Position numbers and translations under genes: made by a program
Shown: one piece after another, positions 5,797 to 6,570 of the stretch
Position numbering within the stretch: the stretch's first letter is position 1
Layout: every line of letters starts with the position of its first letter
Notes under the pieces: model-generated
The model's database searches: none
Seen by the model: only the letters and a program-made list of their open reading frames with translations
What the model was told of the DNA's origin: nothing
Virus genome (UHGV): UHGV-0127686
Strand: one strand, 5' to 3'
DNA: 39,745 bases
Origin: a virus

Positions 5797-6570
5797 ATGG
5801 ATATTACTGAGTTTCCTTCTGGAGTAATTGAACACCTTGGCTGGTATGTATACCGATTGATTGATCCTAGGGACGGAAGCACCTTCTATGTAGGGAAAGG
5901 CAAAGGTAACCGCGTATTTGCCCATATGCGCGGTGAAGTGGCAGCGGCTGATGATGACGAGTTACTGAGCAACAAGCTAAAGCAAATCAGAGAAATAAGA
6001 TTAGCGGGACTTGATGTTATCCATGTCATCCATCGACATGGAATGACTGATGAAAAGACGGCGTACGAAGTTGAAGCAGCACTTATTGATGCCTACCCTG
6101 GGTTAACGAATATCATGAATGGTGCTGGCAGCAATGAATTCGGCGCCGCGCATGTCAAAGAGTTGATAGCAACATATCAACCCGAAACCATAACATTTCA
6201 TCATAAAGCATTAATGATTTCCGTTAACAGAAGTGCAAAGGATTCAGAGCTTTATGATGCGGTTCGATTTAGCTGGCGCATTAATGTCTCTCGCGCCAGC
6301 CAAGCAGAAGTCATTCTTGCTACTGTAAGGGGGATCGTTCGAGGGGTTTTCATTGCTGATAAATGGCTCAAATCAACACGTGAAAATTTCCCTACGATGA
6401 AATACTGGGACGAGGATCCGGACTTTGAGGCAACACAAAGTTCTCGCTATGGTTTTGAAGGTCGAGAAGCCCCACCTGAAATAGCAAATCTTTATCTTGG
6501 AAAAAAAATACCAGATGAATTAAGAAAAAAAGGAGCTATGTCCCCGGTCCGTTACTCACCTAATTTTTGA
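5797..6570 (+). CDS. GIY-YIG domain protein with uncharacterised C-terminal region (cargo)
   Basis: From internal ATG at 5797 (track ORF 5746 begins with TTG); [29 protein letters not shown] resembles the UvrC-type GIY-YIG core; downstream [11 protein letters not shown]...N fits the catalytic Glu/Asn region. Confidence 0.55.

Follow-up and report, generated by a model that had tools for sequence, protein, structure and literature searches.

An AT-rich ORF with a GIY-YIG motif, lying beside the DNA invertase gene of a temperate phage, raises the question of what its product does and how it came to be there. The window, i.e., the whole 39,745-nt stretch of DNA analyzed (UHGV virus genome UHGV-0127686), holds this ORF at positions 5797-6570. 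An earlier note, made from the sequence alone, described a GIY-YIG core followed by about 170 residues of unknown function and suggested acquired cargo.

Position and composition of the ORF

The ORF (5797-6570, plus strand) is uninterrupted over 257 codons and corresponds to the same 774-bp CDS in RefSeq. The GIY-YIG core of its 257-aa product, with the motif beginning GWYVYRL, was confirmed. An in-frame TTG at 5746 provides an alternative start that would add 17 residues. The 774-bp form starting from the ATG at 5797 is the one annotated by RefSeq in hundreds of genomes, and the published residue numbers of CMoRE (see below) are reproduced when counting from this ATG. The GC content of the ORF is 43.7% vs. 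51.6% in the structural genes (7222-29000), and the genes for tail, head and packaging are all encoded on the other strand; both the AT-richness and the transcription against the phage late genes noted earlier thus hold for this ORF.

On its downstream side, 60 bp separate the ORF from the stop codon of the invertase gene (pin; 6631-7221, minus strand), the two genes being convergent. A hairpin (6581-6639; RNA fold of -20.8 kcal/mol, z = -2.9 vs. shuffles) lies between them, with its 3′ arm overlapping the stop codon of pin. This hairpin, which was missed by the terminator consensus scan, might possibly act as a bidirectional terminator of both genes. On the upstream side, about 210 bp (5587-5796, plus strand) are conserved together with the gene (homology start at 5587-5600, 96% identity) and presumably contain its native promoter. 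No convincing sigma-70 promoter or Shine-Dalgarno sequence was detected in front of the ORF; in the consensus scan of 3900-7300, sigma-70 and terminator sites were no more numerous than in shuffled sequence.

Identification of the protein as CMoRE (PD-T4-3)

Results of the profile searches clearly placed the protein in the PD-T4-3 family. The PADLOC model PDLC04031 (PD-T4-3; 256 positions) aligned with residues 1-256 (E = 2.8e-140), phrog_5356 of PHROGs was matched over the whole length (E = 8.7e-143), and Pfam PF22945 (LEM-3-like GIY-YIG) was found at residues 28-110 with 53.6 bits at a cut-off of 27, while NCBIfam had no family for this protein. Together with the core motif, the Pfam and PADLOC matches uphold the GIY-YIG nuclease assignment. 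According to Liu et al. (Nat Commun 2026; PMC12923530), PD-T4-3 is a single-gene GIY-YIG system that Vassallo et al. 2022 (PMC9519451) obtained by functional selection, with ECOR68 as the source strain of the original system; the text of Vassallo et al. (PMC9519451) does not name PD-T4-3 individually. Liu et al. renamed the system CMoRE.

Full-length matches were also obtained in the PDB, to the proteins of E. coli O157:H7 (9U75/9U8D, E = 2.5e-172) and E. coli APEC O1 (9U7U/9U7Z, E = 2.8e-151). In a residue-by-residue comparison, 253 of the 257 residues (98.4%) were identical to the crystallized O157:H7 CMoRE. The four substitutions (E55D, D73E, Q169K, and N197H) spare every residue named in PMC12923530, and position 55 remains acidic. 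Liu et al. described a third tyrosine in the N-terminal GIY-YIG domain (“GIYxY-YIG”; Y17/Y19/Y31) and a 15-residue acidic loop over the active site, between alpha2 and alpha3, in which replacement of four consecutive acidic residues by alanine (mutant 4A) gives a toxic enzyme that cuts ordinary DNA. [quoted passage not shown] Y17, Y19, Y31, R80, V92, L96, and Y127 are all kept in the protein studied here. The three-tyrosine feature reads GWY17-V-Y19 ... FY31VG, and the acidic run is D52-D53-D54-E55, the APEC O1 protein likewise having DDDE. R39 and E93 are present and invariant in comparison with jumbo-phage homologues of 39–46% identity. Since the text of PMC12923530 gives no residue numbers for the catalytic Arg and Glu, we infer that R39 and E93 form this pair of the GIY-YIG fold.

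Two domains can therefore be delimited, with approximate boundaries. The N-terminal GIYxY-YIG nuclease domain (5797-6165, plus strand), drawn from the Pfam PF22945 match and the named residues, holds Y17/Y19/Y31, R39, E93, the acidic lid D52-E55, and V92/L96 of the dimer interface. The C-terminal modification-sensing domain (6166-6567, plus strand; approximately residues 124-257), whose function follows PMC12923530, contains Y127 and has just two differences (Q169K and N197H) from the crystallized O157:H7 protein. The stretch of about 170 residues to which the earlier note could assign no function is hence the 5hmC/5ghmC sensor of CMoRE, for which crystal structures are available (PMC12923530). 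No methyltransferase domain was detected in the four scanned ORFs of 3998-7221, and across five genomic contexts no methyltransferase or partner gene was conserved beside the CMoRE gene. The locus thus shows the type IV restriction feature of a nuclease and a modification reader in one system, without a cognate methyltransferase.

As far as sequence can test them, all the defining features of CMoRE/PD-T4-3 are present in ORF 5797-6570. The defence role implied earlier gains firm ground from the full-length PADLOC match and the 253/257 identity to a characterized enzyme, and we regard it as very likely that the ORF encodes a functional CMoRE; expression and activity of this allele in its lysogen are what we infer from its sequence. 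The proper annotation of 5797-6570 is CMoRE/PD-T4-3, a type IV restriction endonuclease specific for 5hmC/5ghmC DNA, while the RefSeq label now in use is “LEM-3-like GIY-YIG domain-containing protein.” CMoRE is already characterized, and 5797-6570 adds nothing new about it.

Prophage context and the terminal cargo slot

Positions 898-3997 correspond to 262,901-266,000 of K-12 (the 3′ part of thrW and the left end of CP4-6) with 99.7% identity, and the match ends at 3997. The genes of the CP4-6-like island comprise ykfI/yafW (toxin-antitoxin), ykfG, and yafX. The last 46 nt of thrW (tRNA-Thr; 3952-3997, minus strand) constitute the att core at the junction between this island and the prophage end. 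Because the match, including these 46 nt, stops at 3997 and ARAGORN found no complete tRNA at 3952-3997, the data indicate that a second mobile element is integrated in tandem at thrW, adjoining the CP4-6-like island. Beyond 3997, the whole of the remaining DNA is that of a temperate phage, which combines lambdoid early genes (CI-like repressor at 37657-38370, replication protein O, DnaB, NinB/NinG, and antiterminator Q) with a contractile-tail late region (baseplate J, tape measure, portal, and terminase). It shows 96.6% identity to the record of Escherichia phage vB_EcoM-611R5 over 78% of the late region and is also related to Salmonella phage SEN34. The att-proximal arm (3951-4263) recurs in O157:H7 beside the integrase of another island. 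Two phage-borne tRNA genes, tRNA-Thr(TGT) and tRNA-Asn(GTT) (32339-32494, minus strand), are situated between the antiterminator Q gene and the lysis genes, on the upstream side of the latter.

The invertase encoded at 6631-7221 is of the Pin/Gin serine type (Pfam Resolvase, 2.1e-51; HTH_7, 4.3e-13); its RefSeq homologues begin at about 7185, which gives 184 aa, and in DNA the gene is 92% identical to pinE of prophage e14. Beside pin, crossover-type inverted repeats of 20 nt (7247-7266 and 9130-9149; 95% complementary, 1863 nt apart) flank alternative tail-fibre C-termini and assembly genes, forming an invertible host-range segment of the Pin/Gin type.

The 2.6 kb between the thrW att core and pin (3998-6630) form the terminal cargo slot of the prophage. 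A comparison with related prophages, proposed in the earlier note, defined what moves within it: only a 1.05-kb cassette (5587-6631), made up of the ORF, the roughly 210 bp that precede it and the spacer to pin, travels with the gene. Homology with O157:H7, strain C7 and the lambda-like prophage of strain p4A begins at 5587-5600, irrespective of the sequence further upstream. The cassette recurs in different prophage backbones and with differing neighbours (the GIY-YIG/Myb gene described below, an AraC-family gene, or a type II RM system). It is preceded by an IS fragment and the AraC-family gene in both O157:H7 and strain C7; in strain p4A it follows the stf/tfa genes of the lambda-like prophage at ssrA and adjoins the type II RM system. 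In the related vB_EcoM-611R5 record, the slot contains no CMoRE and is filled by unrelated hypothetical genes; neither these nor the O157 AraC-family gene had a match in PADLOC. These observations support the proposal of acquired cargo, and no relative was found to carry the gene in a conserved structural or lysogeny role. We thus concluded that ORF 5797-6570 is horizontally acquired defence cargo and not a conserved structural or lysogeny module.

At the same time, the arrangement is not as unusual as was first claimed. The CMoRE gene was found in 838 of 5426 complete E. coli genomes (15%), nearly always full-length and with 95–100% DNA identity, and the equivalent slot beside pinE in the K-12 prophage e14 holds mcrA. 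With the type IV enzyme McrA as its occupant in e14, the slot from pin to the end of the prophage is a well-known site for such cargo.

The neighbouring GIY-YIG/Myb gene

The slot contains another gene at 4438-5382 (plus strand), whose product joins a GIY-YIG nuclease to a Myb/SANT-like HTH at the C terminus and is 314 aa long when intact, as in the allele WP_001742131.1. Alignment with strain 2009C-3133 revealed that a TA dinucleotide is missing near 5070; the resulting frameshift splits the gene into ORFs 4438-5070 (210 aa) and 5225-5380 (51 aa). As the gene measures 947 bp in all 25 of the E. coli matches listed vs. 945 bp here, it would be either a pseudogene in this strain or the product of a sequencing error. 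The earlier statement that two GIY-YIG proteins lie within 2 kb therefore stands in part: 5797-6570 is intact, whereas ORF 4438-5070 (Pfam GIY-YIG score sub-threshold, E = 0.0026) belongs to a frameshifted copy of the 314-aa gene. That the two are unrelated agrees with our results, as no sequence similarity was detectable between the 4438-5382 protein family and CMoRE.

The neighbour family comprises proteins of about 310 aa conserved in Enterobacterales, Vibrio, Aeromonas, Pseudoalteromonas and one betaproteobacterium, with Y25, Y38, G40, R48, H52, E153, and N171 invariant. The gene is present in 289 of 5426 E. coli genomes. Its homologues adjoin type I RM systems in CP4-like islands, and in Salmonella one shares an integrative island with a TIR protein. 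The Vibrio homologues are embedded in series of short genes with no relation to one another, among them acetyltransferases and a ParE/Phd pair; by gene content alone these series look like integron cassette arrays. PADLOC gave no match for the family save a marginal PDC-S14, and a literature search on GIY-YIG integron-cassette defence genes did not identify it. Taken together, the contexts are suggestive of a putative defence or selfish nuclease. That the family represents a new single-gene anti-phage nuclease is a tentative and rather doubtful candidate reading; if true, two defence-nuclease genes would share the pin-to-att slot, making it a hotspot in these e14-like prophages. The neighbour is the only part of the locus with some, if mild, novelty and we consider it a modest lead.

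Predicted mode of action and alternative explanations

The activity of CMoRE has been described in detail. In the work of Liu et al., T2, T4, and T6 plated about five orders of magnitude less efficiently on cells with CMoRE, and cultures carrying it grew normally at MOI above 1, host DNA remaining untouched during T4 infection, which denotes a direct, non-abortive defence; the same non-abortive observation was made for the original ECOR68 system (PMC12923530). The purified enzyme degrades 5hmC- and glucosyl-5hmC-DNA, not C- or 5mC-DNA, and in agreement hmC-only T4 is restricted while cytosine-T4 escapes. Cleavage follows CN11/N9G, leaves 2-nt 3′ overhangs and requires two modified cytosines (PMC12923530). 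Defence was seen from “native promoter” constructs, yet the APEC O1 allele gave weak defence when driven by its own promoter (PMC12923530); the strength of defence can therefore vary between alleles. A 48%-identical Capnocytophaga homologue degrades T4 DNA and Mu DNA, not T4-GT7 DNA (PMC12366544), and when the gene is deleted from E. coli NILS69, where it occurs naturally, Tevenvirinae phages plate at a higher level (10.1101/2024.12.20.629700).

Because of the near-identity to the tested O157:H7 protein, this mechanism can be applied to ORF 5797-6570. Going by the experiments on that 98.4%-identical protein, its product would form a tetramer (a dimer of dimers), in which the C-terminal domain would bind flipped-out 5-hydroxymethyl-cytosine or glucosyl-hmC. 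One dimer is expected to read two modified cytosines about 21 bp apart, and the GIYxY-YIG nuclease to cut between them (CN11/N9G, 2-nt 3′ overhangs) with Mg2+ or Mn2+. The acidic loop (DDDE, residues 52-55) would cover the active site, so that unmodified host and prophage DNA is spared, and no methyltransferase would be needed. The expected result is that the lysogen is directly and non-abortively immune to T-even-type phages; hypermodified phages other than T-even may possibly be restricted too. The lysogen is thus predicted to resist T2/T4/T6-type phages, which is relevant to host-range prediction in phage therapy.

The alternative that best survives is that the gene is intact but silent, or crippled by one of the four substitutions, and contributes nothing to its host. 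We consider it improbable. It would agree with the lack of a recognizable promoter or RBS ahead of the ORF and with the regional decay seen as pin remnants and IS fragments in the equivalent slot of strain C7. It would also agree with the frameshift in the adjoining cargo gene 4438-5382 of the same strain; as this neighbour has decayed, the slot is not under uniformly strong selection. On the other hand, the ORF is uninterrupted, its substitutions are all conservative or outside the named functional residues, and intact alleles of 95–100% DNA identity are retained in 823 genomes. Moreover, deletion in the native context in another strain gave a phenotype (10.1101/2024.12.20.629700).

Far less probable still is the reading as a homing endonuclease of the GIY-YIG class (I-TevI-like or Seg-like), i.e., a selfish gene spreading itself between phage genomes. 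A weak PHROG match to “homing endonuclease” (phrog_314, E = 0.0026), the annotation of the jumbo-phage homologues as “putative homing nuclease,” and the presence of the 1.05-kb cassette in differing backbones could be read in this way. However, the protein showed none of the features of such enzymes: there was no NUMOD/IENR-type DNA-binding module (Pfam) and no HTH module, the intron-endonuclease model TIGR01453 (NCBIfam) was unmatched, and the cassette was always located in the terminal cargo slot, not inside or between conserved genes. Its C-terminal domain is, besides, a solved 5hmC sensor, and cleavage is modification-dependent, not sequence-dependent (PMC12923530). The identity as a homing endonuclease was thus rejected. 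An abortive-infection toxin, i.e., an infection-triggered nuclease degrading host DNA, is equally improbable and was likewise rejected: toxicity and cutting of ordinary DNA by mutant 4A and the PADLOC defence-family match of BstA on the same prophage would speak for it, but CMoRE cultures grow normally at MOI above 1 with host DNA intact during T4 infection (PMC12923530). A functional CMoRE giving direct immunity therefore remains our reading of 5797-6570.

Other putative defence genes of the prophage and CMoRE homologues in jumbo phages

A gene for a 301-aa BstA homologue (38457-39362, plus strand; PADLOC PDLC02356, full-length, E = 1.3e-105) is located directly downstream of the CI-like repressor gene (37657-38370), in AT-rich DNA. 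BstA is a prophage abortive-infection system. The gene at 30056-30940 (minus strand) encodes a 294-aa trypsin-like peptidase (Pfam Trypsin_2, 2.3e-10) and is a PDC-S45 candidate (PADLOC, E = 8.5e-101). It lies in an AT-rich patch (GC of about 0.39–0.42) between the lysis genes and the small terminase gene, and this patch looks like a second cargo slot. With CMoRE, BstA and the PDC-S45 candidate, one temperate phage would supply at least two, perhaps three, independent defences.

Full-length CMoRE homologues with 38–46% identity were found in lytic jumbo phages, namely Serratia phages Moabite and 2050HW, Pseudomonas phage OBP and Klebsiella phage N1M2. Two of these were aligned with the protein, the homologues of Moabite (L016, 3001-3765) and OBP (L017, 2992-3753). 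Both keep Y17/Y19/Y31, R39, E93, and Y127, while the four-residue acidic autoinhibitory run is absent. These homologues may reflect a phage-against-phage use of the modification-dependent nuclease.

Comparison with known systems

The closest counterpart is CMoRE of E. coli O157:H7 (9U75, 9U8D), which has the same length, two-domain architecture and single-gene organization; in O157:H7 strain 7409 it is likewise prophage-borne and beside pinE. The loci differ in the upstream neighbour, a frameshifted GIY-YIG/Myb gene here vs. an AraC-family gene there. Despite the four substitutions, nothing suggests a functional difference between the two proteins.

The position of the gene resembles that of mcrA in e14, i.e., the slot between the pin invertase of a tail-fibre inversion system and the prophage end. 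McrA (EcoKMcrA) is an HNH nuclease that recognizes 5mC/5hmC in a sequence context, and it has no sequence relationship to CMoRE. Furthermore, mcrA is co-oriented with pinE in e14, which is integrated at icd, whereas the CMoRE gene is convergent with pin in a prophage at thrW.

In its targets, CMoRE is comparable to PvuRts1I/AbaSI and GmrSD, which also attack phages that escape classical restriction by hydroxymethylating or glucosylating cytosine. PvuRts1I, too, depends on a pair of modified cytosines, between which it cuts at a fixed distance (PMC12923530). Unlike CMoRE, however, PvuRts1I/AbaSI and GmrSD have nuclease folds of the PD-(D/E)XK and HNH/DUF types and SRA-like sensors.

With regard to the catalytic domain, CMoRE is similar to LEM-3/ANKLE1, as it passes the Pfam PF22945 threshold (53.6 bits). 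This likeness is at the domain level only, since CMoRE has neither ankyrin repeats nor a LEM domain, and identity of the protein as a LEM-3 orthologue was rejected on this basis. The nearest structure to the catalytic domain is that of UvrC (PMC12923530), the C-terminal half of which is absent from CMoRE. The extra tyrosine (GIYxY) and the 15-residue acidic insertion set CMoRE apart from LEM-3/ANKLE1-type and UvrC-type domains alike (PMC12923530).
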